Assembly (NCBI GenBank): GCA_964387885.1
Contig: CAYLYZ010000084.1
Location: forward strand, 1 to 25,964
DNA from: an uncultured bacterium
GTDB taxonomy: Bacteria > Electryoneota > AABM5-125-24 > Hatepunaeales > Hatepunaeaceae
DNA length: 25,964 nucleotides
Direction of reading: 5' to 3'
Below are positions 3,332 to 21,912 of this stretch, one piece after another. The position numbers and the translations under genes were made by a program. Under the pieces are notes generated by a model, which was not told the DNA's origin, searched no databases, and was given only the letters and a program-made list of their open reading frames with translations. Each line of letters begins with the position of its first letter. Within the stretch, counting starts at the first letter, position 1.

Positions 3332-4030
3332 TTATTGAATCGGGAAAAGGACAAAAATTGATACATCCCAAACAGCGTGTGAGACTATACCGGGCAACAC
3401 ACTACCAGTAACTTTATACAGCAATCCCCAGAAAACTCCGCACACGCCTGCAGCACCAATTAACATCAGGTTCATGCTTGGGATGTGAACCGCTGTGTAT
3501 GCGAGTCCGGCAATCAGGAATCCTACCCAGGGATTCCATTTTTTTGCGAACCTCTTCTGGACAAATCCACGCCAGAATATCTCCTCTCCGGGACCGATAG
3601 GGAAGAGGAGCAGCAAACCAATTGTCCATTGTGGTAATTGGGATTTTCGTCCGTATATCGAATCAATCTGTTGATCCTGATTGATAAACGATTGAGTAAC
3701 GATGTCCCCAAGGACGAAGATCCCGTATAAAATCGCAGCTGAAACTACTCCCCACGTTATAATTTTACCCCACGACCAATTGTATTTCAAAATACTACGG
3801 TCGTGGGAGAATGACCATATACTCAGGGAGGAGGTCGCAATCACCATCCATATCCAGAAGTTGCCATAATTGACCCTGAACATGAAAGTCCATAGGATCA
3901 GGGCTGCAAACACTCCGATCCAGACAGGTTTCAGATTTTGCTCATCAACTGCCTTAGAAGATGCTGGCAAGTACGAATCCCGCTGAGAGCAGTAAGCCGA
4001 AAAGCATGTGCAGTTGGGCTGTCGAAACAT
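3332..4030 (-). CDS. CPBP family intramembrane glutamic endopeptidase (CAAX protease / Abi domain)
   Basis: Multi-TM protein with the EExxxR motif (EEIFWRGF), FxxxH (YTAVHIP) and HxxxD (SHAVWD). The ATG at 4030 overlaps the upstream gene by 77 nt; an in-frame TTG at 3970 would give a 17-nt overlap and may be the true start. Confidence 0.7.
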   Translation of the reverse strand: MFRQPNCTCFSAYCSQRDSYLPASSKAVDEQNLKPVWIGVFAALILWTFMFRVNYGNFWIWMVIATSSLSIWSFSHDRSILKYNWSWGKIITWGVVSAAILYGIFVLGDIVTQSFINQDQQIDSIYGRKSQLPQWTIGLLLLFPIGPGEEIFWRGFVQKRFAKKWNPWVGFLIAGLAYTAVHIPSMNLMLIGAAGVCGVFWGLLYKVTGSVLPGIVSHAVWDVSIFVLFPIQ

Positions 4031-7557: not shown

Positions 7558-7627
7558 TTGACTGACATGTAATTATTGCTTACTTTGCACATATGTTATG
7601 TGATAATGGACATTTGTACACATTATG
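7558..7627 (+). promoter_or_regulatory. Putative promoter/operator region of the BMC operon: TTGACT -35-like, extended -10-like TGtGATAAT, and phased ACATnTGT palindromic motifs
   Basis: TTGACT is at 7558-7563 and TGTGATAAT at 7599-7607. ACATGT is at 7566, ACATATGT at 7589, ACATTTGT at 7610 and ACATTATG at 7620, spaced about 10 or about 21 bp apart. Confidence 0.3.
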
Positions 7628-8584
7628 CTAAAGACATCGGAAAAAACATCATCGCTTGTGGATGTAGCAAGGTTATACTACGAGCATGATTACAGTCAGC
7701 AGGACATTGCGAGAAAACTCGGGATTTCACGACCCAGTGTCTCGAGAATGCTGCAAAAGGCTCGAGAATTGGGCATAGTCCGAATTAAGATCTATGATCC
7801 TGAACAGCGAGGTTCGCATCAGGAAAAAGCTTTACAACAAATATACGGGCTCAAAAAGGTAATTCTCGTACCTAATGAGGACGCAACGGATCTAGTAATT
7901 AAGCAGAGGTTGGGATTTGTAGCGGCCAGATACCTTGACGAACTTCTTGAGGATGGTCTCACAGTTGGGGTTTCCTGGGGATCAACGATGCAGGAGGTTG
8001 TTAAGCACCTTCAGCACAGGACAATTCGCAACATGACGGTAGTTCAACTGAATGGTGGAATTTCGAGAGCAGAGTATAACACTCATGCAAGCGAGATTGC
8101 GCTGAAAATAGGAAAAAACTATCAGGCGATACCCTTTCTGTTGCCGTTACCGGCGATAGTCGACCAGGTACGAGTCAGAAGAGCGATTATTACCGATAAA
8201 AACATTGCCAAAACACTAAATCTTGCAAGAGAAGCTCAAATTGCAATGTATACCGTTGGAGCTTTCAGCTTCAACTCTGTGCTTGTAAAAGCTGATTACT
8301 TCGAGACTGAGGAAGTTGAAGAACTTTTAACCGACAAGGCAGTAGGTGATATATGTTCGCGGATAATTGATGAAAATGGGAACATATGTAACTCGAAGCT
8401 CAATGCCCGGACAATTGGTATAAGTCTAAGTGATTTAAAAAAGAAGAAATACGCTATTGCAGTCGCAGGTGGCATGGAAAAGCTCAACGCAATCAGAGCT
8501 GGATTGCGAGGTAATTATTTTAATGTACTTATCACAGATGAGTGGGTTGCTTCAAAGCTATTAGAAAACGCTGACATTTCCTGA
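7625..8584 (+). CDS. SorC/DeoR-family sugar-phosphate-binding transcriptional regulator
   Basis: N-terminal HTH ([41 protein letters not shown]) is typical of SorC/CggR/B. subtilis DeoR. The C-terminal region is a sugar-binding domain. The gene leads the BMC operon. Confidence 0.8.
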
Positions 8585-8594
8585 AATAAAGAAT

Positions 8595-10004
8595 ATGAAT
8601 TCATCTGAAAAACAAATTATCGCAATAGGTTCCGATCATGGTGGTTACCAACTTAAGGAAAAACTAAAAGAATACCTGACTCGCAATGGATTCAATGTAA
8701 ATGACTGCGGAACTTTCAGCACTGAGGATGTTGACTATCCGAAATTCGCATATCTGACCGCGAAGGAAGTTTCAGATGGGAACGCACATTTCGGCATAAT
8801 CGTCGATGGTGCAGGAATTGGTTCGGCTATGACAGCAAATAAAGTTGGGGGTATACGAGCTGCACTCTGCTACGATGTTTCATCAGCAAACAACGCACGT
8901 GAACATAATAATGCCAACGTTTTAACACTGGGCTCCGGATTAATAGGGGAAAACCTGGCCAAACAGATTTGCGATAAATTCCTGTCAGTAGACTGTACCG
9001 TTGACCGACACCTTAAACGGGCAAGTATGATTGATGAACTTGACAAAGGTATAATCCCGTTTTCTGCAATTAATGCTTCAAAGACCAGCAATAAAAAGGA
9101 CAATCACCCGATGGAATTGTCAAGTCAGGATCTAACTCGTATTGCAGATCGAATACGAGAAATGCTCTCAACCGATGTTGCAGAACCTAAAAAACATCAG
9201 AGCGCTTGTGGTGATGCAAACTGTAATAATTGTGGTCATTGTGCTGAAAAAACTCCGGATACAATAAGAAAATATCTTGACCTTGGTGCGGGAAGGATTT
9301 CTCATAAATCAGGTTCAGGTTACATTCCAAAGGATATTGCTGGAATTATCGACCATACAATACTCAAACCGGATGCGACCGAAGATGACATTATCACACT
9401 TTGTAACGAAGCTCGCGAACATGGATTTGCTTCGGTTTGTGTGAATCCTACCTTTGTGTCTCTGGCAAGGAGAGAACTTGTTGGTACTGACGTTCAGGTT
9501 TGTACGGTAGTAGGTTTCCCTCTTGGTGCGCACATGTCAGAGATTAAAAGTATGGAAACCCGACGTGCTATTCGTGAAGGTGCACGAGAAATCGACATGG
9601 TTATAAATATCGGAGCCCTGAAAAGCGGGAAAGATGATCTCGTTTACGACGACATTCGCAAAGTGGTGGATGCATGCGAGGATGGAGGCGCTCTAAGCAA
9701 GATAATTATTGAAGCTGCACTTTTAACAGATGATGAAAAGATCCGAGCCTGTCAACTCTGCAAACGAGCTCGTGCCAATTATGTTAAAACCTCTACCGGA
9801 TTCGCTCCCGGTGGCGCAACAGAAAAGGATGTCGCCCTGATGAGCAGTGTGGTGAAAGACTCCGGGATAGGTGTTAAAGCTGCCGGTGGGATAAAAGATT
9901 ATAAAGATTTTGAAAAGATGGTTTCGGCAGGTGCCACGAGAATTGGTGCCAGTGCCGGGATAAAGATTGTTCAGGGAGCCAGGGAAGTTACGGTCTCGAA
10001 TTGA
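8595..10004 (+). CDS. Fusion protein: ribose-5-phosphate isomerase B (RpiB/LacAB) N-domain + deoxyribose-phosphate aldolase (DeoC/DERA) C-domain
   Basis: Residues 1-150 carry [13 protein letters not shown]...[18 protein letters not shown] (RpiB fold). Residues about 245-469 carry [12 protein letters not shown]...CVNP...YVKTSTGF, the DERA Schiff-base Lys motif. A 50-aa linker with an amphipathic helix and a C-x4-C-x2-C-x2-C motif joins them. Confidence 0.8.
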
Positions 10005-10028
10005 ATGCTGTGTGTATATCACCTGTAG

Positions 10029-10048
10029 GGGCGAATAATCATTCGCCC
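10029..10048. repeat. GC-rich palindromic element copy (GGGCGAAT-aatc-ATTCGCCC)
   Basis: A perfect 8-bp stem. It belongs to an approximately 26-nt element, TGTAGGGGCGAATAATCATTCGCCC. Confidence 0.5.
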
Positions 10049-10102
10049 TTAGTAGCAAGTGAACAGCATTTAGGTCATGTCCTACAAAGTAAGATTTGTT
10101 TT

Positions 10103-10129
10103 GGGCGAATAATTATTCGCCCCTACGAC
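10103..10129. repeat. Inverted copy of the same palindromic element (GGGCGAATAATTATTCGCCCCTACGA)
   Basis: A 20-nt perfect palindrome. Its reverse complement is near-identical to the element at 10024-10048, forming an inverted doublet about 55 nt apart. Confidence 0.5.
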
Positions 10130-10163
10130 AGTAAAATCTTTTATATAAAGGGGAGGTAAACTC

Positions 10164-10787
10164 TTGGTAGACCTTCGCGCATACGTTTTTTTAGATAGTA
10201 TTCAACCACAGTACGCGGCATATCTCGGTACAGTGGCAAAAGGTTTTTTGCCTATTGCAGGCATGGCATCGCTGTATGTCGAGATTTCACCTGGCATCGA
10301 GATCAACAGGATTACAGATATTGCTCTGAAATCGACGAACGTGACTCCCGGGATGCAAATCGTTGAGCGACTCTATGGAATGCTTGAAATTCATTCTAAT
10401 TCGCAGGCAGATGTTCGGCAAGCGGGACAAGCAATTCTCGAAGCCCTTGATCTTAAGGAAGAGGACAGGTGGAAACCAAAGATCTACTCACAGCAGGTCA
10501 TACGACGAGTGGACGACCACCAGACACAGCTAATTAACCGGATGCGGTTTGGAAATATGATTATCCCTGGTGAAACGTTATTTGTCATGGAAGTTGCTCC
10601 CGCTGCGTATGCGGCTCTTGCAGCAAATGAAGCAGAAAAAGCTGCTGAAATCAACATCCTCGATGTACGTGCATTTGGAAGTTTTGGCAGAGTCTACCTT
10701 GGTGGTGAAGAACGCGATATTGATGTCGGTTGGCGTGCTGCCGTTAAGGCAATTGAAGAAGTTACAGGAAAAGAACAATCTAAATAA
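10164..10787 (+). CDS. BMC shell protein, tandem BMC-domain (BMC-T) with 33-aa N-terminal extension
   Basis: Two canonical BMC domains are present: [25 protein letters not shown] resembles PduA ALGMVET...ADAMVKSANV, and [29 protein letters not shown]...G...[13 protein letters not shown] is the second. TTG start with a GGGAGG SD 7 nt upstream; an alternative ATG at 10263 would begin directly at domain 1. Confidence 0.55.
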
Positions 10788-10801
10788 ATTTTGGAGAAGA
10801 A

Positions 10802-11116
10802 ATGGCAGAAGCACTGGGAATGTTGGAAACACGCAGTTTTCCTGCGGTAGTCGAAGCCGCTGATGCTATGGTAAAAGCTGCAAAAGTTGAATTAGTATCA
10901 TACGAAAAAACAGGTGGCGGGTATGTCACTGCTATTATCCGTGGTGATGTAGCTGCAGTTAAAGCTGCCTGCGATGCCGGTCGTGCGGGAGCTGCGAGAG
11001 TAGGTGAAATCGTTGCTGTTCATATCATTGCCCGTCCGCATTCTAATGTTGACTTTATCATGCCGCTTGGTCGTGAGGAAGATGGCAAGGCGGGAATGGA
11101 GCGTCTTAGTAAATAG
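10802..11116 (+). CDS. BMC-H hexameric shell protein (PduA/EutM/CcmK family)
   Basis: [60 protein letters not shown] is a textbook BMC domain (PF00936). Confidence 0.9.
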
Positions 11117-11135
11117 TCGCTCTTAAGGAGGTATT

Positions 11136-11435
11136 ATGGTTCTCGCCAAAGTTGTCGGGACATTGGTTTCGACACAAAAAGAAGAGAGTCTCGAGGGGCT
11201 GAAATTCCTGATACTGCGCAATGTTGAGATCAATGGCAAAGTCGGCAAAGGTTTTGTAGTCGCAGCTGATGGTGTGGGAGCTGGTATAGGAGAAATGGTT
11301 TTGTACGCAAGTGGCAGCTCAGCCCGTCAAACCAAATTGACCGAAAACCGCCCCTGTGACTCAATTGTTATGGCAATTGTTGATAATTGGGAAGTTGACG
11401 GGAAGTTAAAGTACAAGAAGGGAGTTAACGATTAA
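11136..11435 (+). CDS. BMC-P pentameric vertex protein (EutN/CcmL/PduN family), paralog 1
   Basis: MVLAKVVGTLVSTQKEESLEGLKFLILRNV...GFVVAADGVGAGIGEMVLYASGSSAR is the EutN/CcmL signature. A strong AAGGAGG SD precedes it. Confidence 0.85.
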   Translation: MVLAKVVGTLVSTQKEESLEGLKFLILRNVEINGKVGKGFVVAADGVGAGIGEMVLYASGSSARQTKLTENRPCDSIVMAIVDNWEVDGKLKYKKGVND

Positions 11436-11486
11436 GAGTGATTATTACATATCACTCGAATTGTATGGGCACGATGCTCGTGCCCA

Positions 11487-11505
11487 TTACTTCTTTGTTC
11501 AAGGT
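11487..11505. repeat. GC-rich hairpin GGGCACG-atgct-CGTGCCC (member of GGGCR..YGCCC family)
   Basis: 7-bp GC stem followed by ATTAC, lying between the BMC-P gene and the aldehyde dehydrogenase gene. Confidence 0.5.
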
Positions 11506-11540
11506 TTCGACTTTTAATGATATCGTTATCAATCAAACAG

Positions 11541-11559
11541 GGGCACGGGCACCGTGCCC
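11541..11559. repeat. GC-rich hairpin GGGCACGG-gca-CCGTGCCC (second copy of pair)
   Basis: 8-bp stem followed by TTAC, 35 nt downstream of the previous hairpin. Confidence 0.5.
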
Positions 11560-11603
11560 TTACGCTTTAACAGCATCTAATAATTATTAATTATGGAAGA
11601 GCT

Positions 11604-13055
11604 GTGTCCCGGTTAACAGACGAACAAGTAAATATCATTGCTGCTGAAGTCATAAAGCAACTTAAACAACCTGAATCCGGAAATTCTTCAGATAGAAGCA
11701 AAACAGCTTCTGCTCCATTAACATCGTTCGGAGCAGGAATCTTTGCCGATATTGATTCAGCAGTTAAGGCTGCACGTCTGGCTCACGAAAGGCTTGTGAG
11801 TATGACACTTGAGCAACGAAAAAAAATAATTTCGAACGTTCGCAAGCGAATGCTCGAGGCAACTGAAGAATTGTCTCGAATGGCGCTCGAAGAGACCGGC
11901 CTTGGTAGGTTCGAAGATAAAATTCAGAAAAACAGACTTGTTACGCTGAAAACTCCGGGAACAGAAATTCTTCAGCCAACAGCATGGTCGGGTGACAGAG
12001 GACTTACATTGATGGAATTGGCTCCTTATGGTGTTATAGGAGCAATAACTCCTGTTACCAACCCAACATCGACGATCATATGCAATTCAATTGGCATGGT
12101 TGCTGCTGGAAACGCAGTGGTATTTAACGTTCATCCAAGTGCTAAGAATACCAGCATCAGGAATATTATCCTGCTCAATGAAGCAATAACTGAAGTTGGT
12201 GGACCGGAGAATGTCATTACATGCATATCAGAGCCTACAGTAGAGAGTGCTACTGAGCTGATGCACCATCACGGTGTCAGGTTGTTAGTCGTAACAGGTG
12301 GTGGTGCAGTAGTTAAGGCAGCTATGAACAGCGGGAAACGGGCTATTTGTGCAGGACCCGGTAATCCTCCAGCTGTCGTTGATGAAACCGCAGATATCGA
12401 TCTTGCTGCAAAAAGCATTGTTGCAGGTGCTTCTCTCGATAACAACATTATCTGTGTACTCGAGAAGACCGTCATAGCGGTTGATTCTATCTCCGATTCA
12501 CTCATTGAAGCATTTCAAAGACACAATGCGGTATTGCTGACACAAGAGCAGTTCAACCAATTAGAACCGATTATCTTCTCAAAGACTAACGGACCGCGCA
12601 AATATGCAGTGGTGGACAAAGATTTGATCGGAAAGAACATACAGGTGATTCTTTCGAAAATCGGAATGACTGTACCTGATAATATCCGACTTGCGGTGGT
12701 TGAGGTAGATGCGGATCATCCCCTGGTCTGGACTGAACAGATGATGCCGGTAATGCCATTGGTCAGGGTATCTGATGTAGATAAAGCAATTGAGCTTGCC
12801 AGGGAATCCGAACATGGTTACCAACATACAACAGTTATGCACTCGACCAACATCAACAACCTTTCAAAAATGGCGCGAGAGATGAATTGCAGTATATTTG
12901 TCAAGAATGCACCCGGACCTGCCGGCCTGGGATATAACGGCGAAGGTTATTGTTCATTCTCAATTGCGAGCCCAACCGGTGAAGGATTGACGAATGCGCG
13001 GAGTTTTTCCCGCGAGAGGCGTTGTACGTTAGTTGATAATTTCAGAATTGTATGA
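11604..13055 (+). CDS. CoA-acylating aldehyde dehydrogenase (PduP/EutE-like BMC aldehyde dehydrogenase) with N-terminal encapsulation peptide
   Basis: GTG start. ELAPYGVIGAITPVTNPTSTIICNSIGMVAAGNAVVFNVHPSA and the catalytic Cys motif LDNNIICVLEKTV match PduP/EutE. The N-terminal amphipathic helix TDEQVNIIAAEVIKQLKQ plus a Ser/Ala linker looks like an encapsulation peptide. Confidence 0.85.
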   Translation: MSRLTDEQVNIIAAEVIKQLKQPESGNSSDRSKTASAPLTSFGAGIFADIDSAVKAARLAHERLVSMTLEQRKKIISNVRKRMLEATEELSRMALEETGLGRFEDKIQKNRLVTLKTPGTEILQPTAWSGDRGLTLMELAPYGVIGAITPVTNPTSTIICNSIGMVAAGNAVVFNVHPSAKNTSIRNIILLNEAITEVGGPENVITCISEPTVESATELMHHHGVRLLVVTGGGAVVKAAMNSGKRAICAGPGNPPAVVDETADIDLAAKSIVAGASLDNNIICVLEKTVIAVDSISDSLIEAFQRHNAVLLTQEQFNQLEPIIFSKTNGPRKYAVVDKDLIGKNIQVILSKIGMTVPDNIRLAVVEVDADHPLVWTEQMMPVMPLVRVSDVDKAIELARESEHGYQHTTVMHSTNINNLSKMAREMNCSIFVKNAPGPAGLGYNGEGYCSFSIASPTGEGLTNARSFSRERRCTLVDNFRIV

Positions 13056-13663
13056 TTAGAAGATATCCTGCAATAGCCCTGCTTGAATTATCCGGAATCT
13101 CCCGTGGTGTCGTAACAAGCGATGCAATGGTCAAACGAGCTCCGATAACGATGATAAAGTCGGGGACGATCTCGGAAGGTAAGTATCTTATCCTCGTCGG
13201 GGGAAGTGTCGCTTCAGTCGAGGAAGCTTTTGCTGCCGGAATGTCAATCGGGGGAAATTCAATTATCGATCATGTAATCCTGCCGGATGTTCATACCCAG
13301 GTTCACGATTCGATACTCGGAACAAAACGTAAACCAGCTGCTGATGCATTGGGATTAATTGAAACGAGCACTGTAGCTGCAACTATCAGATCGATGGATG
13401 CTGCGATCAAAAGTACAAAGATAGATATTGTCGAATTGAGGTTGGGTGATAACCTTGGCGGAAAAGCATTTGCTATATTCTCCGGCAAGGTCGAAGATGT
13501 ACAAACTGGAATGGACATTATTCATGAAGTATCAGGCGGGAAAGAGTATTTGACTGCAGAAGAGATTATCCCGAGATTGGCTGATGTGATAGGCAAACAA
13601 CTCGAATCAGGCAGCAGATTTGCTGAAATCAGGGCCAGCATATTAGAAGACGGGGAGCTCTGA
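13052..13663 (+). CDS. BMC-T tandem-domain shell protein (PduT-like)
   Basis: Two BMC domains: IALLELSGISRGVVTSDAMVKRAPITMI... and ALGLIETSTVAATIRSMDAAIKSTKIDIV... It overlaps the aldehyde dehydrogenase stop by 4 nt (ATGA). Confidence 0.75.
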   Translation: MIRRYPAIALLELSGISRGVVTSDAMVKRAPITMIKSGTISEGKYLILVGGSVASVEEAFAAGMSIGGNSIIDHVILPDVHTQVHDSILGTKRKPAADALGLIETSTVAATIRSMDAAIKSTKIDIVELRLGDNLGGKAFAIFSGKVEDVQTGMDIIHEVSGGKEYLTAEEIIPRLADVIGKQLESGSRFAEIRASILEDGEL

Positions 13664-13664
13664 T

Positions 13665-13952
13665 ATGATGTTGGGAAGGGTATTCGGTACTGTCACGGTC
13701 AGTGTAGTTTACGAGGGATTGGAGGAGACTCCGATGCTGCTCGTGCAGCCTCTCGATAAACGCCAACAGCCTGAAGGTGATTTCGTTGTCGCAGCCGATC
13801 CGACACGAATGGCAGGACCGGGCGAGCTGATATACTACGAAGCCAGCCGCGAAGCCGCCTTACTGTGTGATCCCTGGTTCGTCCCTGTAGATCATGCGAT
13901 AGTTGGGATAGTCGACGACGTCCACCTCTCAAACCACCCGGACGAGCAATGA
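13665..13952 (+). CDS. BMC-P vertex protein (EutN/CcmL family), paralog 2
   Basis: MMLGRVFGTVTVSVVYEGLEETPMLLVQPLD...DFVVAADPTRMAGPGELIYYE is an EutN-like fold signature. Confidence 0.75.
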   Translation: MMLGRVFGTVTVSVVYEGLEETPMLLVQPLDKRQQPEGDFVVAADPTRMAGPGELIYYEASREAALLCDPWFVPVDHAIVGIVDDVHLSNHPDEQ

Positions 13953-14209
13953 AAATCGGACGCGTCAGCGGAACTCTGCACAGCACTATCAACCATCCTT
14001 TTTACGACAACAGGAAAATCCTCGTCGTAGACTTGCTAAGCCCGGACAAAACCGAAACCGGAAAATACTTGATCGCATTAGATGTTGTTGATGCCGGAGT
14101 AGGGGAGACGGTGCTGATCGTTGATGAAGGCAACTCCGCCCGGCAGGTTTTTGATGCGAAGAATGGCCCTGTCCGGTCTGTGATTGTAGGAATTGTAGAC
14201 GAATATTAG
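13949..14209 (+). CDS. BMC-P vertex protein (EutN/CcmL family), paralog 3
   Basis: MKIGRVSGTLHSTINHPFYDNRKILVVDLLSPDK...YLIALDVVDAGVGETVLIVDEGNSARQ. There is an ATGA overlap with the previous gene. Confidence 0.8.
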   Translation: MKIGRVSGTLHSTINHPFYDNRKILVVDLLSPDKTETGKYLIALDVVDAGVGETVLIVDEGNSARQVFDAKNGPVRSVIVGIVDEY

Positions 14210-14401
14210 GTTGGAATCTGCAGAGTGCATAAGCGTGCATTGAGCAATTCGTTATAAACCACATCCTGATAATCTGTGCACCCAATATTTAGCCAAAGAA
14301 TATGCTAACAAAGCTTCTGTTTCCTAAATCTTAGTAAGAATTGATTCACACTTGCGCAATATGGCGCATCTGTTGCGTATTTTTACACATTTCTTTACGT
14401 T

Positions 14402-17607: not shown

Positions 17608-17642
17608 AGTCCCGATTTTTGTGAAAATCGGGACTTTTTTCT
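17608..17642 (+). terminator. Rho-independent terminator of the FG-GAP/T9SS gene
   Basis: AGTCCCGATTTT-tgtg-AAAATCGGGACT has a 12-bp stem and is followed by TTTTTT. Confidence 0.75.
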
Positions 17643-17666
17643 CATCAAGTTCTTCGATTATTGAAT

Positions 17667-17693
17667 GTGGAGTGCTCAAGCCACGCTTGAGCA
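17667..17693 (+). repeat. REP copy 1 (GGAGTGCTCAAGCCACGCTTGAGCA), followed by second hairpin TCGAAGC-aaa-GCTTCGA
   Basis: Palindromic stem TGCTCAAGC/GCTTGAGCA. The same unit recurs five more times around the transposase gene. Confidence 0.7.
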
Positions 17694-17770
17694 TCGAAGC
17701 AAAGCTTCGAACAAAACTGATACTGAGTTCATGCGTTAACTCGATGCAAAACTTTCCATCCAACAAAATA

Positions 17771-17794
17771 GCTCAAGCATGGCTTGAGCACTCC
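17771..17794 (-). repeat. REP copy 2 (inverted orientation)
   Basis: GCTCAAGCATGGCTTGAGCACTCC is the reverse complement of GGAGTGCTCAAGCCATGCTTGAGC. It lies 9 nt from the transposase stop. Confidence 0.7.
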
Positions 17795-17802
17795 ATAATC
17801 CT

Positions 17803-18324
17803 CTAAAAGTCATCAACAATATTTAATCTATCTATCGGCAATGATAATATCTCATTATAAAATCCCTTTTTACTATTCTCAATAAACCAACCTGCAGAAC
17901 AAAACGGGTAATCCAGGGGATTTTCAACCAAACCATGTTTTACCGGATTGTAGATCACGTATTTCATTCTGGCAAAATAGCTTTTTTCATTGCTAATGCA
18001 AGTATCCCAGTATTGATACCAAATTCTCCTGCCCGGACAGTAATCTATCTTATTTACCAATCGCGAAGCCTGAGAATGTATTCTTTGAATTGTGTTCTTC
18101 AGAGGTTTAGAATCTTCAGTGGAACATGCAATCAGATGATAATGATTTGCAAACACTGCCCAGGCAAGTATTTGCCAGTTATATTCATCCAAAACGTCCA
18201 ATATAGTTTTAGTCAGGATTGATAACTTTTTTTCTGTGTTAAAGAATTTTGCTTTCTGGTAGGTACTTGCAGTGATTATATAAAACGAGTTGTGTTGAAA
18301 AATGTGTAAAGGTCTGTGAGACAT
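17803..18324 (-). CDS. REP-associated tyrosine transposase (RAYT; IS200/IS605-like HUH Y1 transposase)
   Basis: 173 aa with the HUH motif (ANHYHLI) and a C-terminal catalytic Tyr motif, YVIYNPVKHGLV. It is flanked by inverted REP copies. Confidence 0.75.
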   Translation of the reverse strand: MSHRPLHIFQHNSFYIITASTYQKAKFFNTEKKLSILTKTILDVLDEYNWQILAWAVFANHYHLIACSTEDSKPLKNTIQRIHSQASRLVNKIDYCPGRRIWYQYWDTCISNEKSYFARMKYVIYNPVKHGLVENPLDYPFCSAGWFIENSKKGFYNEILSLPIDRLNIVDDF

Positions 18325-18337
18325 TCTTATGTCCTTC

Positions 18338-18483
18338 TGGAGTGCTCAAGCCATGCTTGAGCGTTTGCGAAAATTATTCAAAACAAAAAGCTAAATTATG
18401 GAGTGTTCAAGCCATGCTTGAGCGTTTGCGAAAATTATGCAAAACTCCAATCTATTTGTGGAGTGCTCAAGCCATGCTTGAGC
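18338..18483 (+). repeat. Tandem ~62-bp repeats each beginning with a REP (copies 3, 4, 5)
   Basis: The units are GGAGTGCTCAAGCCATGCTTGAGCGTTTGCGAAAATTATTCAAAAC..., then GGAGTGTTCAAGCCATGCTTGAGCGTTTGCGAAAATTATGCAAAAC..., then GGAGTGCTCAAGCCATGCTTGAGC. Confidence 0.7.
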
Positions 18484-18564
18484 TTAAAAGAAATTAATCC
18501 GAAGTTTATATATAAATACAACTTAAATTTAACTACCACCCATCTTTCGAAGCTTCACTTCGAT

Positions 18565-18589
18565 GCTCAAACATGGCTTGAGCACTCCA
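18565..18589 (-). repeat. REP copy 6 (inverted), with adjacent CGAAGC-ttcac-TTCG second hairpin as in copy 1
   Basis: The reverse complement, GTGGAGTGCTCAAGCCATGTTTGAGCATCGAAGTGAAGCTTCGAAAG, aligns with copy 1 plus its second hairpin. Confidence 0.65.
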
Positions 18590-18668
18590 CAGATCACAAC
18601 ATCCTATCGAACCAAACTAACCGTCCTGACCACAGAAATCACTTGCTTTTCAACAGTGATTAGAAAAT

Positions 18669-20915
18669 TTATTGGTCTTCTTTCTCTTTTTTAGGGCTCT
18701 GTTTCCCGTTTGCCCAATCGTTCAGAAGATGTGCACCACGTTTTCTAACTTCCGGGTCATCAAACTTGATGAGTTGGTGAGCAATCCAAAATTTTAATTC
18801 ATCTTGTCTGATATATGTTCTAATATTAAAGGTCTCTCTTGCACATTTGATCCTGAAATCTCTATTTGGGTGATTATAGCACTTTATTAGAATCTTTTTA
18901 CTTAAATACCCGATTCTTATTCCAATACCAACAATCTCTCTTGCGATATGAAATGGAGAATCATCGAGAATATCTAATATTTTCTGTTCCGCATCTAATA
19001 TTTGTTCTCCTAATTCTCCAAGCTTATGATATGACCATTTAACAACTGGAAAATCTCCCTTATTCAAGTTATACAAAAAACCATAAAACGCTTTATCTCC
19101 CATCGAGTCGTACAGGTATTTGAATTGTATTCTGCCTTCTGAAATAGTATCTCTTTCGGTATCAATTCTAATCCAGGCAGAACTCACGAGCTTGAACAAT
19201 TTAAGTGAAAGCTCAGGTGAATCTTTTACTAGATTGTAGACAAGTGTTCTTGCTGGAAAATCCAGTGCATAAACCACAGCTAATTGATCCAGAAAAGGAA
19301 ATAGAAGTGAATCTGCAGTTGAATAATAGTTTTGGAGAAAAACCAAATCCTTATTGTCAAGATCATGCCTTAAGAAAAGGTTTTCAATTAGTAACTCAGA
19401 TGATTTTAGATTCTTCGGAAAAAATTCATTAAACAACTTCTGGTAAGCGAACTTTATTTTCCGGTCTTTTGATTTCAATGAATCAAGCACAATTTGATGT
19501 ATATCTGTCGTATCTTTGGCAATGTCAAATATATATTCCTTAAGCTGTTGTTTCATAATGCTGTCTTTATTTGAGTCATAATCAAACCTCATTGTCATGG
19601 TATAAATTAGTTTATCCAAAGAAGACCTTGATAATGTATCATTGAGCATTTTCAGGTATCTGAGACCCTCATAAAAACATGCTGATGGAATTAATTCTAT
19701 AACTGTATTAATTAACGGATGAGTTGATTCACCTATGGCAACGAGATCACGAAGTATCTTTTTTCTGGTTTCTGCATACTCAATATAGAATTGATTCGGA
19801 AATTCGTCGACATATTCTTCATCGCCATAGCTCAAGTCACAAATTACAGAATCACGATAATGGTTCCAATCAGATTCTACTATTCTACCAATGAGAATCT
19901 CATTGATATGTGGTAAAAGCGAATCAATTCTTGAATGCTCAATTTTCATTAGCGTGATTAGAAAATCAATTCTCGGTAAATCTGCGATCCCGTCGAGTTT
20001 GATAAGTTCCTGTACAGTGCTTTGTGCAGACGCACCCATGTTTCCAAGAACTCTTAGGGCAAAAGTGATCTCTTCAGTCGTCCCTGATTTCAACTTTCTA
20101 AAAAGAAAATCGATTTTATCCGAGGAAGTCTCATTTGAAATATAAAGTTCTTTTAGGAAAATGTAGTCTCTGTAATCTACTCCACTTAAGAAATCGAAGA
20201 TCACTCGAATTGCTCTATCGTGGGTATCAACAGTTATACTGTCAATCTCTACAATTCCCGTGCTATCGCTAAAATAAAATACAGAAAAGAATTCATAAAT
20301 ATCCATGTCATAAAAATTTCTAAATTTCTCATCTGAAAGCTGATAAAAATCATTAAGTGCCTTTGTTGCTAATGGATTATTGTAGTTTATAATAAAAGTT
20401 TTTCTGAGATTTTTGACGACATCAGGCTCTGAGAGATCATATCCGGAAAACGAGTTAATTTCTTCCTTATAATAAACATCGAGCAAATCTTCGTTCAGGA
20501 CATCTTTGCCATTTAGCTTAAAAAATAAGTTTATAGCATGAACACTATATCCTGAGTATTTTGCGATGTTATTAACAATAATTCTGTGGAGTTCGGGATC
20601 AGGTTCTCCGGATAATTGTTTTAGTATTGTAAGTGATTCCGGAAAAAACTCCTCTTCACCGAGGAGTTCCATTGCCGGTTTTCGAAGTTCATCCTCTTTG
20701 TCTAAGGCAATTGAGAATATTAACTCTTTATAATAGTCTGAATTTTCTTTAATGTGTTTAAGGGCTTGATATTTCAGCTGATCATTACTTTTAACGGCAG
20801 CGATATATTCTCTTTGAGTTAGGTGATTCATTGGTTGCCCTTTGCAATCAACTGAAAAAATAACCACAGTTAGAAAAAGAAGTGCTTTCTTCAATCCTTG
20901 ATTTTTTAATCTCAT
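18669..20915 (-). CDS. Hypothetical secreted protein (748 aa), AT-rich, no recognisable domain
   Basis: Signal peptide MRLKNQGLKKALLFLTVVIFSVDCKGQ. The composition is Lys/Asp/Phe/Tyr/Ile-rich and predicted alpha-helical. Coding is plausible because the ORF is long with an AAGGTG SD. Codon usage is visibly more AT-rich than neighbouring genes. Confidence 0.55.
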   Translation of the reverse strand: MRLKNQGLKKALLFLTVVIFSVDCKGQPMNHLTQREYIAAVKSNDQLKYQALKHIKENSDYYKELIFSIALDKEDELRKPAMELLGEEEFFPESLTILKQLSGEPDPELHRIIVNNIAKYSGYSVHAINLFFKLNGKDVLNEDLLDVYYKEEINSFSGYDLSEPDVVKNLRKTFIINYNNPLATKALNDFYQLSDEKFRNFYDMDIYEFFSVFYFSDSTGIVEIDSITVDTHDRAIRVIFDFLSGVDYRDYIFLKELYISNETSSDKIDFLFRKLKSGTTEEITFALRVLGNMGASAQSTVQELIKLDGIADLPRIDFLITLMKIEHSRIDSLLPHINEILIGRIVESDWNHYRDSVICDLSYGDEEYVDEFPNQFYIEYAETRKKILRDLVAIGESTHPLINTVIELIPSACFYEGLRYLKMLNDTLSRSSLDKLIYTMTMRFDYDSNKDSIMKQQLKEYIFDIAKDTTDIHQIVLDSLKSKDRKIKFAYQKLFNEFFPKNLKSSELLIENLFLRHDLDNKDLVFLQNYYSTADSLLFPFLDQLAVVYALDFPARTLVYNLVKDSPELSLKLFKLVSSAWIRIDTERDTISEGRIQFKYLYDSMGDKAFYGFLYNLNKGDFPVVKWSYHKLGELGEQILDAEQKILDILDDSPFHIAREIVGIGIRIGYLSKKILIKCYNHPNRDFRIKCARETFNIRTYIRQDELKFWIAHQLIKFDDPEVRKRGAHLLNDWANGKQSPKKEKEDQ

Positions 20916-21360
20916 TCAAATCACCTTAAAGAAATCATTTTTTCACTCCTGTTATTTCCGAATACTAAACTGAACATACGTCGCGTGGCATAGTCTGGCT
21001 TGCCCAGACATGATTCATATATTTAAAAATAACCGATTTCGGCAGATCGTTATCAGCCCTAAAAGACTTTTAATGACTCGTGTCCGTATGAGCAGATACA
21101 CCACCCATATTGCAATTTAGAGCACAAATGAAGAATTAGCAAATGTGTACAGGAGGCAAATAGTAAATGCCCATCGGGGAAGTAAATATCGACCGTCTCG
21201 TACTTATCAACCCTTGCAAGCTGTACGGAAATGTAAATTCCCAACCTGCAAACAGACTGTCTTGGAATGCCGAATAGAGTGCCCGACATGCATCCCCGCC
21301 TGATAAAAAAACAACCACTTATACACCCGAACACCACATCACTTGGTCTCCTGGTCACAT

Positions 21361-21510
21361 ATTTCCGTCATTTCCATTACCTTTTTGTCACTGCCGTTAC
21401 TTATTTGCTATTTTCGTTACTTTTCATCAACATCGTCACATTTCCGTCACACCCTCTATCCCATACCCACAACCGCTTTCCGCAAATTGTGTGACGATGT
21501 GACGGAAATT
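21361..21510. promoter_or_regulatory. Array of GTCAC/GTTAC/GTGAC half-sites with interleaved inverted repeats (ATCGTCACA...TGTGACGAT; TTTCCGTCAC...GTGACGGAAA)
   Basis: TTTCCGTCA occurs at 21362, TTGTCAC at 21386, CGTTAC at 21395 and 21415, and ATCGTCACATTTCCGTCAC at 21432-21450. TGTGACGATGTGACGGAAAT lies at 21490-21509, so the two inverted pairs are each about 59 bp apart. Confidence 0.35.
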
Positions 21511-21549
21511 TTCACCTACCCCATACTTTCCTTTACTTTGTGATGAAAC

Positions 21550-21578
21550 TTGACTTTTTCAAAATTATGTTGTATATT
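21550..21578 (+). promoter_or_regulatory. Near-consensus sigma70-type promoter (TTGACT-17 nt-TATATT with TG immediately upstream of -10)
   Basis: TTGACT is at 21550-21555 and TATATT at 21573-21578. There is no + strand ORF downstream; the downstream 200 nt contain three hairpins. Confidence 0.35.
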
Positions 21579-21653
21579 GTCTACATATTTTTCGTATATA
21601 TCATGAAAAGTCACGAACTTAGTAGCAATGTCTTGAAAGAAATTACAAATATG

Positions 21654-21683
21654 CGCAGGGGCAATTCGTGAATTGCCCATGCG
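21654..21683. repeat. GC-rich hairpin CGCAGGGGCAATTCgtGAATTGCCCATGCG (GGGCR..YGCCC family)
   Basis: 9-bp core stem plus a 4-bp outer extension with one G.A mismatch. Confidence 0.5.
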
Positions 21684-21708
21684 GGAATGGAAATATTGAC
21701 AGGGAAGA

Positions 21709-21728
21709 GGGCACGTAGCAACGTGCCC
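21709..21728. repeat. GC-rich hairpin GGGCACGT-agca-ACGTGCCC
   Basis: Perfect 8-bp stem, 25 nt downstream of the previous hairpin; the paired arrangement matches the other two sites. Confidence 0.5.
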
Positions 21729-21730
21729 GT

Positions 21731-21767
21731 ACAAAAATAAAGCTGGCAGACGAGAACGCCTGCCAGC
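21731..21767 (-). terminator. Probable Rho-independent terminator of the tricorn-like protease gene (minus strand)
   Basis: On the minus strand the hairpin CTGGCAG-gcgttctcgt-CTGCCAG is followed by CTTTATTTTTGT. It lies about 145 nt after the stop at 21913. Confidence 0.5.
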
Positions 21768-21912
21768 ACAAAAAGTCAATTTTCCAAAAACACCGTTCGA
21801 ATTGCTAACTCACAAAGTTAAAATTCAGATAACAACAAAAAAATCCGTTAAATCCAATTAATCAGTTGTGAATAATAAACTTGCGAACTTGAAAACTTGT
21901 AAACTTTCAAAC

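Follow-up and report, generated by a model that had tools for sequence, protein, structure and literature searches.

REP-associated tyrosine transposases (RAYTs, or TnpA_REP) and the repetitive extragenic palindromes (REPs) with which they are paired have been reported from ~25% of species, including Cyanobacteria, Bacteroidetes, Planctomycetes, and Chloroflexi (PMC6006769, PMC3733652). The term REPtron, together with the layout of a RAYT gene flanked by inverted REPs, is already established (PMC8266576). In this study we analyzed contig CAYLYZ010000084.1, a 25,964-base stretch (hereafter the window) from an uncultured marine Calditrichota bacterium, in which an intact RAYT gene is surrounded by short hairpin repeats that carry an unpaired GGAG tag at their 5' foot. 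The locus is an ordinary, well-preserved case of a domesticated single-stranded DNA (ssDNA) transposase gene with hairpin repeats, and it is very probably a REPtron, that is, a chromosomal, apparently single-context RAYT amid a cluster of its cognate REPs. The system as such is known, and the novelty is modest, consisting of the Calditrichota host and of a one-base tag variant, GGAG, that is common to a clade of RAYTs. In the literature that we searched, we found neither a GGAG-tagged REP class (the terms for it came together once, in an unrelated sense) nor a REP or RAYT report for Calditrichota. An earlier interpretation of this DNA made from its letters alone (the sequence-only reading) had called RAYTs poorly described outside Proteobacteria, which is partly true but has to be set against the surveys cited above, with their ~25% of species and several phyla.

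In Stenotrophomonas maltophilia, the REP has a tag, pairs perfectly over 8 bp around a loop of 3 nt, and is cleaved at CT, for which the last two bases of the tag select (PMC8266576). The REP of the window resembles that of the Group 3 REPtron Sm of S. maltophilia K279a (PMC8266576) in that a 4-nt 5' tag directly adjoins the foot of a palindrome that has a stem of 8 bp and a loop of 3 nt; the two are 24 nt and 23 nt long, respectively, they share AG as the last two tag bases, and in both systems the RAYT gene is REP flanked. In contrast to REPtron Sm, which has a GTAG tag and a gammaproteobacterial host, the window combines a GGAG(T) tag with a low copy number and a Calditrichota host, and its protein signature (NHYH / WY / YVIYNP) departs from the DH[LF]H / WQ / YI[VI]ANP of subclass 2.5 (PMC6006769, Table 1). 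The E. coli enzyme TnpA_REP (RayT/YafM, 4ER8) is the best match in both sequence and structure, and inverted REP pairs at gene 3' ends are found in both organisms, while the E. coli REP/BIME (bacterial interspersed mosaic element) sequences differ in their bulged stem, their strict GTAG, and their hundreds of copies.

Judged from printed motifs only, the window RAYT appears to be closest to TnpA_Y1 subclass 2.8 (NHYH, W[YH], YIHYNP), with N60-H-Y-H, W102-Y103, and Y122-V-I-Y-N-P at the corresponding places. The hallmark of this subclass is a Tyr inside the HUH motif, and its genes are REP flanked; it is small and was reported from Cyanobacteria, and other, unrelated phyla contain relatives (PMC6006769). 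Unlike subclass 2.8, which has long canonical REPs, a GT[AG]G tag, and a proline-rich N terminus, the window has short REPs with GGAG, and its N terminus, MSHRPLHIF, is not proline rich.

In Pseudomonas REPtrons, the RAYT genes lie within inverted repeats made of a REP and an unrelated stem-loop, and in Pseudomonas and others there are tag-outside REP dimers 20-100 bp apart as well as REPs that are tandemly reiterated with flanking DNA (PMC3733652). All three features, namely, compound inverted repeats, dimers, and tandem reiteration, are present at the window locus, although the compound units are dispersed hundreds of times in Pseudomonas and the second hairpin is confined to the locus in the window. 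The same survey defines the REP tag superfamilies GTAG and CGTC and leaves GGAG unmentioned (PMC3733652). As in the REPIN (REP doublet forming hairpin) system of Pseudomonas fluorescens (PMC3116915), we found a single-context RAYT and foldable REP doublets that are dispersed extragenically; unlike REPINs, which are replicated whole and have related spacers, doublets of the window type conserve the 24-nt REP only. In Marinomonas, REPs are clustered around the RAYT gene with few elsewhere, which was read as a recent arrival (PMC8266576).

Results

The 173-amino-acid (aa) open reading frame (ORF) on the minus strand of the window is, by homology, a REP-associated tyrosine transposase. It passed the NCBIfam model REP_Tyr_transpos (NF047646) with 106 bits (cut-off 80, E 1.5e-30) and, narrowly, the Pfam model Y1_Tnp (PF01797; 24.4 bits, cut-off 23), and it did not pass the IS200/IS605 equivalog NF033573 (14 bits versus a cut-off of 55). 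The protein thus scores as a RAYT, for which a C-terminal extension and an NPVKHG motif are characteristic, and not as an IS200/IS605 transposase. In a phmmer search of the PDB, the sole meaningful match was E. coli TnpA_REP 4ER8 (E 3.8e-9), and in the alignment its HMH motif is matched by H61-Y62-H63, its catalytic Y115 by Y122, and its N119 by N126. An AlphaFold2 model built from 33 homologues (mean pLDDT 90.6) likewise had 4ER8 as its top PDB structure match (TM 0.71/0.74), with the IS608, ISDra2, and IS200 transposases at a TM of ~0.5. Residues H61, Y62, H63, W102, Y122, N126, P127, V128, and H130 are invariant in the 33 homologues. Family membership, catalytic motifs, and fold are established by these comparisons, and the HUH (HYHLI) and Y1 motifs that the sequence-only reading had picked out in this frame stand at residues 61-65 and 122-133 (YVIYNPVKHGLV), respectively; its assignment to the Y1 transposases survives the profile searches.

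The identical RAYT protein is present on 13 contigs from several metagenomes. In the seven places listed of these 13 contigs, it has the same neighbors wherever the contig reaches, a 748-aa gene and an FG-GAP gene of a type IX secretion system (T9SS) protein. A search of PLSDB (72,556 plasmids) returned one weak match of 29% identity, on a Chloroflexota plasmid. This single context and the near-absence from plasmids suggest that the RAYT behaves as a single-context chromosomal gene and not as a multi-copy insertion sequence.

The second component of the system is the REP itself, a 24-nt unit, GGAGTGCTCAAGCCATGCTTGAGC, with the consensus GGAGT-GCTCAAGC-CAT-GCTTGAGC at this locus. We scanned the window with the pattern GGAGTGYTCAAGCCAYGCTTGAGC, allowing up to 3 mismatches, and found six copies between 17669 and 18588, each with 0 or 1 mismatch, and none elsewhere in the 25,964 bases (Table 1). 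The chance level was taken from 100 dinucleotide-preserving shuffles, none of which contained a match (0/100; chance expectation 0). Folding as ssDNA establishes the anatomy of the REP: single copies form a perfect hairpin, 8-9 bp long and with 3 nt in the loop (z -3.5 to -4.7), at whose 5' foot GGAG(T) is left unpaired. The hairpin of copy 6 is somewhat weaker (8 bp, 5-nt loop), and copy 4 is weakened by a G-T mispair (z -2.3).

These copies flank the RAYT gene as inverted pairs, with copies 2 (-) and 3 (+) on the inside and copies 1 (+) and 6 (-) on the outside. Read on the RAYT strand, copy 6 (forward) and copies 5, 4, and 3 (reverse) precede the gene, copy 2 (forward) and copy 1 (reverse) follow it, and both flanks are tag-outward REP doublets. 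The doublets fold as long hairpins, one with -35.0 kcal/mol (z -7.5) and the other, which spans 18456-18593 and comprises copies 5 and 6, with -34.8 kcal/mol (z -10.1).

Table 1. Coordinates of the RAYT-REP locus in the window, and hairpins beside RAYT genes at related loci (percentages are identities to the window RAYT)
Feature	Position or locus	Strand	Remarks
RAYT / TnpA_REP gene, 173 aa, intact ORF	17803-18324	-	HUH H61-Y62-H63; catalytic Y122; N126
REP copy 1	17669-17692	+	GGAGT GCTCAAGC cac GCTTGAGC; tag toward FG-GAP gene, stop 92 nt upstream
REP copy 2	17771-17794	-	8 nt downstream of RAYT stop
REP copy 3	18339-18362	+	14 nt before RAYT ATG
REP copy 4	18400-18423	+	Heads tandem unit
REP copy 5	18460-18483	+	Heads tandem unit; tag-outward doublet with copy 6
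REP copy 6	18565-18588	-	1 mismatch; part of right compound end
Tandem array of 61-nt units, REP at each head	18338-18483	+	Period 61, 2.4 copies, 88% matches (Tandem Repeats Finder)
Left compound end, REP copy 1 + second hairpin	17666-17711	+	Two adjacent hairpins, -16 kcal/mol, z -4.7
Second hairpin TCGAAGC-AAA-GCTTCGA	17694-17710		7-bp stem, beside copy 1
Right compound end, second hairpin + REP copy 6	18546-18591	-	Hairpin 18547-18563, 6-bp stem, 5-nt loop
Lower-GC segment without counterpart in syntenic tricorn-to-FG-GAP interval of relatives	17641-21711		4.1 kb
RAYT P0002, 57%	L025, contig		GGAGT-GCGCAAGC-CRT-GCTTGCGC and GGAGT-GCTGGAGC-CAT-GCTCCAGC
RAYT P0014, 47%	L026, Candidatus Brocadiia genome, gene beside contig end		GGAGT-GCTGTAGC-CAT-GCTACAGC
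RAYT P0034, 47%	L027		Doublets both sides; GGAGT-CCGCAAGT-TCT-ACTTGCGG and GGAGT-CCCGAAGT-TCT-ACTTCGGG
RAYT P0042, 46%	L028		Doublets both sides; GGACT-GCGCAAG-CTTG-CTTGCGC and GGACT-GCGGGAG-CTTG-CTCCCGC
RAYT P0093, 35-38%	L033, Chloroflexota genome		GGAGT-CAAAAGTC-TCCA-GACTTTTG and GGAGT-CCAAAGTC-TCCC-GACTTTGG
RAYT P0064, ~41-44%	L032, contig binned as Thermoprotei		Imperfect 63-nt repeats containing GGAGT/GGACT

The units of the tandem array start at 18335, 18396, and 18456, and the array opens 14 nt upstream of the RAYT ATG. A CRISPR-like reading of this array was rejected, as the "spacers" of units 1 and 2 are 88% identical and the repeat is the dispersed REP. The two outer REPs belong to compound ends that together form a 46-nt inverted repeat (17666-17711 / 18546-18591, 91% complementary) and bound a 926-bp unit. 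The second hairpin of these ends occurs only beside the two outer REPs of the RAYT locus and is absent from all dispersed REP sites.

Much of what the sequence-only reading had said about the repeats is borne out, including the six copies near the gene, the GGAG 5' tail, and a further inverted copy at 18565, while other details need correction. The copies at 17667 (+) and 17771 (-), which had been described as hugging the gene, both lie 3' of the RAYT stop and form a tag-outward doublet, and it is copies 2 and 3 that bracket the gene. The proposed 9-bp stem, TGCTCAAGC/GCTTGAGCA, is found in copies 1 and 6 only; copy 2 is followed by T (GCTTGAGC and then TATTTT) and has an 8-bp stem, as do copies 3-5. 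Three direct copies do sit in tandem repeats, but the period is 61/60 and not ~62 bp, and an extra hairpin does accompany both copy 1 and copy 6, although the version at copy 6 has only 6 bp and a 5-nt loop.

To follow the REP beyond the window, we scanned for exact copies in one genome per GTDB species and, in addition, in Joint Genome Institute (JGI) metagenome contigs. Among the GTDB species, the exact REP was found in one genome only, the Calditrichota metagenome-assembled genome (MAG) co234_bin30 (GCA_018644935.1; hereafter the sister genome), where it is on five contigs. The JGI scan added 10 further stretches, several of which are 96-99.9% identical to co234_bin30 sites. The non-redundant total is 25 REP copies, of which 18 match the consensus exactly and 19, at ~10 sites, are away from the RAYT locus. 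All REP sites in Calditrichota-like contigs (~42-46% GC) are extragenic. Dispersal in the sister genome is established by these copies, and the sequence-only reading of the locus as a REPtron, which would have been undone by a palindrome unique to this spot, is supported by it together with the RAYT homology.

Most dispersed REPs are tag-outward doublets with 60-79 nt between starts; over all doublets, this distance is 60-105 nt and the spacers measure 36-81 nt. In an alignment of nine doublets, only the two 24-nt REPs were conserved and the spacers showed no similarity. We therefore rejected a REPIN reading, and the unrelated spacers make these elements REP dimers, as Di Nocera et al. use the term, and not strict REPINs.

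Three further observations concern the dispersed copies. At L019, a ~500-bp inverted duplication (1-808 and 1397-1895, 86% identity) has an REP doublet in each copy. The same 24-mer with 1 mismatch occurs once at L016 253-276 / L018 3698-3721, on ~60% GC contigs from unrelated samples; we set this match aside as another organism's REP of the same design or as chance (by our estimate, ~0.2 expected in the whole collection). Finally, two Calditrichota genomes with only ~79% (tricorn) / 67% (FG-GAP) identity at shared genes have the identical REP, which points to either a strong constraint imposed by the RAYT or horizontal spread.

Hairpins of the same plan accompany related RAYT genes. We inspected the flanks of the gene at six other RAYT-family loci, whose proteins are 35-57% identical to the window RAYT, and found clean hairpins beside the gene at five of them, on both sides in L025, L027, L028, and L033 (Table 1). 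These hairpins have a GGAGT or GGACT tag, a 7-10-bp stem with compensatory changes, and a 3-4-nt loop. At the sixth locus, L032, no perfect hairpin of at least 7 bp was found near the RAYT gene. From locus to locus, both arms of the stem change together while the 5' tag, the ~8-bp stem, and the 3-4-nt loop are retained, and this established co-variation of stems on a fixed tag plan is what would be expected of a co-evolving enzyme-substrate pair. It appears to us to be the strongest argument that the association of RAYT and REP is functional and not incidental. At L033, the 3' end of the RAYT gene overlaps the start of a radical-SAM/SPASM gene (3512-3531), with REP-like hairpins within the overlap region.

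The tag itself is nearly invariant among the non-redundant REP copies, with GGAG(T) in 24 of the 25 and TGAG in the exception; the bases that precede it show no conservation. The canonical GT[AG]G was not found at the REPs; GTGG arises only by extension, in three copies of the locus. In E. coli, the residues that contact GTAG are W94, Q95, E100, H101, and R104 (PMC6006769), and their equivalents in the window RAYT are W102, Y103, D107, T108, and S111. The replaced contact residues fit the changed tag, with the details of recognition extrapolated from the E. coli enzyme. The L028 RAYT (P0042), the only one with GGACT REPs, is also the only one with an Arg at W106, a position that is otherwise at least 90% conserved and that corresponds to E. 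coli W99, next to the tag-contact residue E100; this single case is a hint of co-variation between tag and protein.

The dispersed REPs are placed in the manner of terminators. They turn their GGAG end toward the nearest stop codon, 8-45 nt and often 8-14 nt away (L001-L005, L015, L019, L020, L022, and the window), each of the four positions that follow the hairpin is a T in 13-19 of the 25 copies, and 16 of the 25 have at least 3 T within 6 nt after the hairpin (binomial p ~1e-5). At the RAYT locus, copy 2 was scored terminator-like on the minus strand (17789-17771) and is followed by TATTTTGTTG on its own strand, which makes it look like an intrinsic terminator for the RAYT gene. Probably, the host also uses the dispersed REPs to terminate transcription or to stabilize mRNA 3' ends, and these copies look exapted, independently of the enzyme.

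One could go further and propose that the hairpins are mainly host terminators or mRNA 3' stabilizers maintained by selection, with the RAYT being an inactive relic or an incidental neighbor. Such an explanation would account for the placement after stop codons, the T-rich 3' flanks, and the terminator-like score of copy 2, and it is in line with the fact that no RAYT was found for the REP-bearing sister genome. However, an identical 24-mer that includes an unpaired 5' GGAGT is not something that ordinary terminators have in common, and five of the six independent RAYT orthologues have differently stemmed, same-tag hairpins alongside, which is the signature of a cognate pair. Moreover, the RAYT ORF is intact, retains all catalytic residues, and is identical on 13 contigs, and the roles of terminator and REP are not mutually exclusive. 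We therefore consider it very unlikely that the hairpins are primarily terminators and keep to the interpretation of the locus as a REPtron.

The genomic neighborhood places the RAYT module in a variable segment. The tricorn protease of the window and proteins from Calditrichota MAGs form a cluster at 90% or more, and the syntenic interval is present both in co234_bin30 (JABGPL010000036, locus L024) and in an ENA contig (locus L023), where it is bounded by the L31 and tricorn genes at one end and by the FG-GAP gene at the other. At the nucleotide level, the window and these relatives are only 79% identical over the tricorn/L31 block and 67% over the FG-GAP gene, which indicates that they belong to different species. 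Between the conserved genes, the relatives have LVIVD and TPR genes, whereas the window has the RAYT module, a 748-aa ORF, and ~1 kb of non-coding DNA. Homology extends just past the FG-GAP gene's conserved terminator hairpin, ends at 17640, 26 nt short of the left compound end, and resumes at 21712. The GC content is 0.347 for the RAYT gene and 0.34 for the 748-aa gene, ~9 points below the 0.43-0.47 of the flanks, and the RAYT module thus lies in a variable, possibly acquired segment. When the sites of the two relatives were treated as empty sites, the module was absent from them, but the break points miss the REP ends; we therefore speak of a variable segment and not of a precise insertion, since break points that differ from the REP ends provide no evidence of precise transposition of the 926-bp unit.

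The idea that this unit, at 17666-18591 and with the gene included, is an autonomous IS200/IS605-like insertion sequence whose ends are the compound hairpins draws on the inverted repeat that bounds exactly the gene and the REPs, on the location of the unit in a lower-GC segment absent from the syntenic site of relatives, and on the concentration of REPs at the RAYT gene, but it is highly improbable, given that the protein passes the RAYT model and falls far short of the IS200 equivalog, that the listed places have one genomic context where the contigs are long enough, that synteny does not break at the ends of the inverted repeat and the interval between the breaks includes the 748-aa gene, that many sites have the 24-nt REP but neither the gene nor the second hairpin, and that IS200/IS605 ends are distinct left and right hairpins (PMC8266576), whereas the ends here are inverted copies of each other.

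Several other features of the window were noted. The 748-aa ORF (18669-20915, minus strand) has a signal-peptide-like N terminus and no Pfam match. In the ~1 kb between it and the tricorn gene (20916-21912), there is no convincing ORF, repeat, or Rfam match, and only 21712-21770 is kept in the related contigs. A bacterial microcompartment (BMC) operon at 7625-14400 contains BMC shell and EutN/CcmL vertex genes (Pfam labels) as well as genes for an aldehyde dehydrogenase, an RpiB/DeoC fusion, and a sugar-binding regulator, and it adjoins two large T9SS-sorted surface proteins. Over the whole window, no Rfam family was found at gathering thresholds; a permissive search gave a single match, of a miRNA-precursor family to the long REP doublet hairpin, which we judged to be meaningless. 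A tRNA scan of the window found none, indicating that the segment is not a tRNA-linked island.

Discussion

Our results lead us to propose a mechanism that is drawn by analogy with the TnpA_REP enzymes of E. coli, Stenotrophomonas, and Marinomonas (PMC3479197, PMC8266576), and catalysis, tag recognition, the cleavage site, and terminator function at the RAYT locus are all inferred in this way. The RAYT would bind the folded REP on transiently single-stranded DNA, recognizing its 8-9-bp perfect hairpin with the CAT loop and the 5' GGAG(T) tag. Y122 would then cut at a nearby dinucleotide and form a covalent 5'-phosphotyrosine, with H61 and H63 holding a metal ion, and rejoining or transfer of the strand could seed, maintain, or repair REP copies elsewhere in the chromosome. 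According to the Marinomonas data and the guide model, the choice of CT as the cleavage site is made by the last two bases of the tag (PMC8266576), and since GGAG shares A3 and G4 with GTAG, this model predicts a cut at CT in the window system as well. Among the 25 non-redundant copies, we did not find a consistent CT beside the REPs, whose 5' flank is merely pyrimidine rich.

A number of observations speak against a REPtron or at least complicate it. The tag is GGAG and not GT[AG]G, and of the five residues that contact the tag in E. coli, three are replaced in the 4ER8 alignment (Q95 by Y103, H101 by T108, and R104 by S111). Dispersal is seen in a sister species, with 79% nucleotide identity at the shared tricorn locus, and not in the genome of the window itself, of which ~35 kb (the window plus ~9 kb upstream) contain no REP outside the locus. 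No RAYT closer than 57% identity, the level of the best full-length homologue, was recovered for the sister genome; a 101-aa fragment, P0056, is 71% identical. The visible copy number, with ~10 sites and 19 copies outside the locus, is low compared to classical REP families, and the unrelated spacers do not support replication of whole REPINs.

While the window locus on its own can be described in terms of known systems, its relatives suggest a broader pattern. It is possible, although we hold this with slightly less than even confidence, that there is a coherent, mostly uncultured, non-proteobacterial RAYT clade with GGAGT/GGACT-tagged REPs, which would constitute a third tag class, and that the system may also move horizontally. 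The labelled members of this putative clade come from Calditrichota, Candidatus Brocadiia, Chloroflexota, and a contig binned as Thermoprotei. Their proteins have the signature NHYH ... GRxVW[YFH]xYWDTC ... Y[VI]xxNPVKHG ... DDF, and the tag-contact residues are changed from Q95 to Y/F/H, from H101 to T, and from R104 to S/T. Horizontal movement is suggested by the identical REP in ~79%-identical genomes and by the position of the RAYT gene in a lower-GC variable segment. On the seven loci considered, it is plausible that a GGAGT-tag clade is widespread in uncultured lineages and possibly spreads horizontally.

Our findings do not overturn the current understanding of RAYTs and REPs; rather, the locus extends the system of RAYT and REP hairpins to Calditrichota. 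For annotation, these REPs flag likely terminators and repeat-induced assembly breaks in Calditrichota MAGs. The locus and its relatives also provide a natural experiment on REP recognition, in which an architecture like that of S. maltophilia is combined with the change of one tag base (GGAG versus GTAG) and in which the stems vary while the tag is fixed. The guide/tag model of cleavage-site selection thus becomes testable with a new enzyme-substrate pair.

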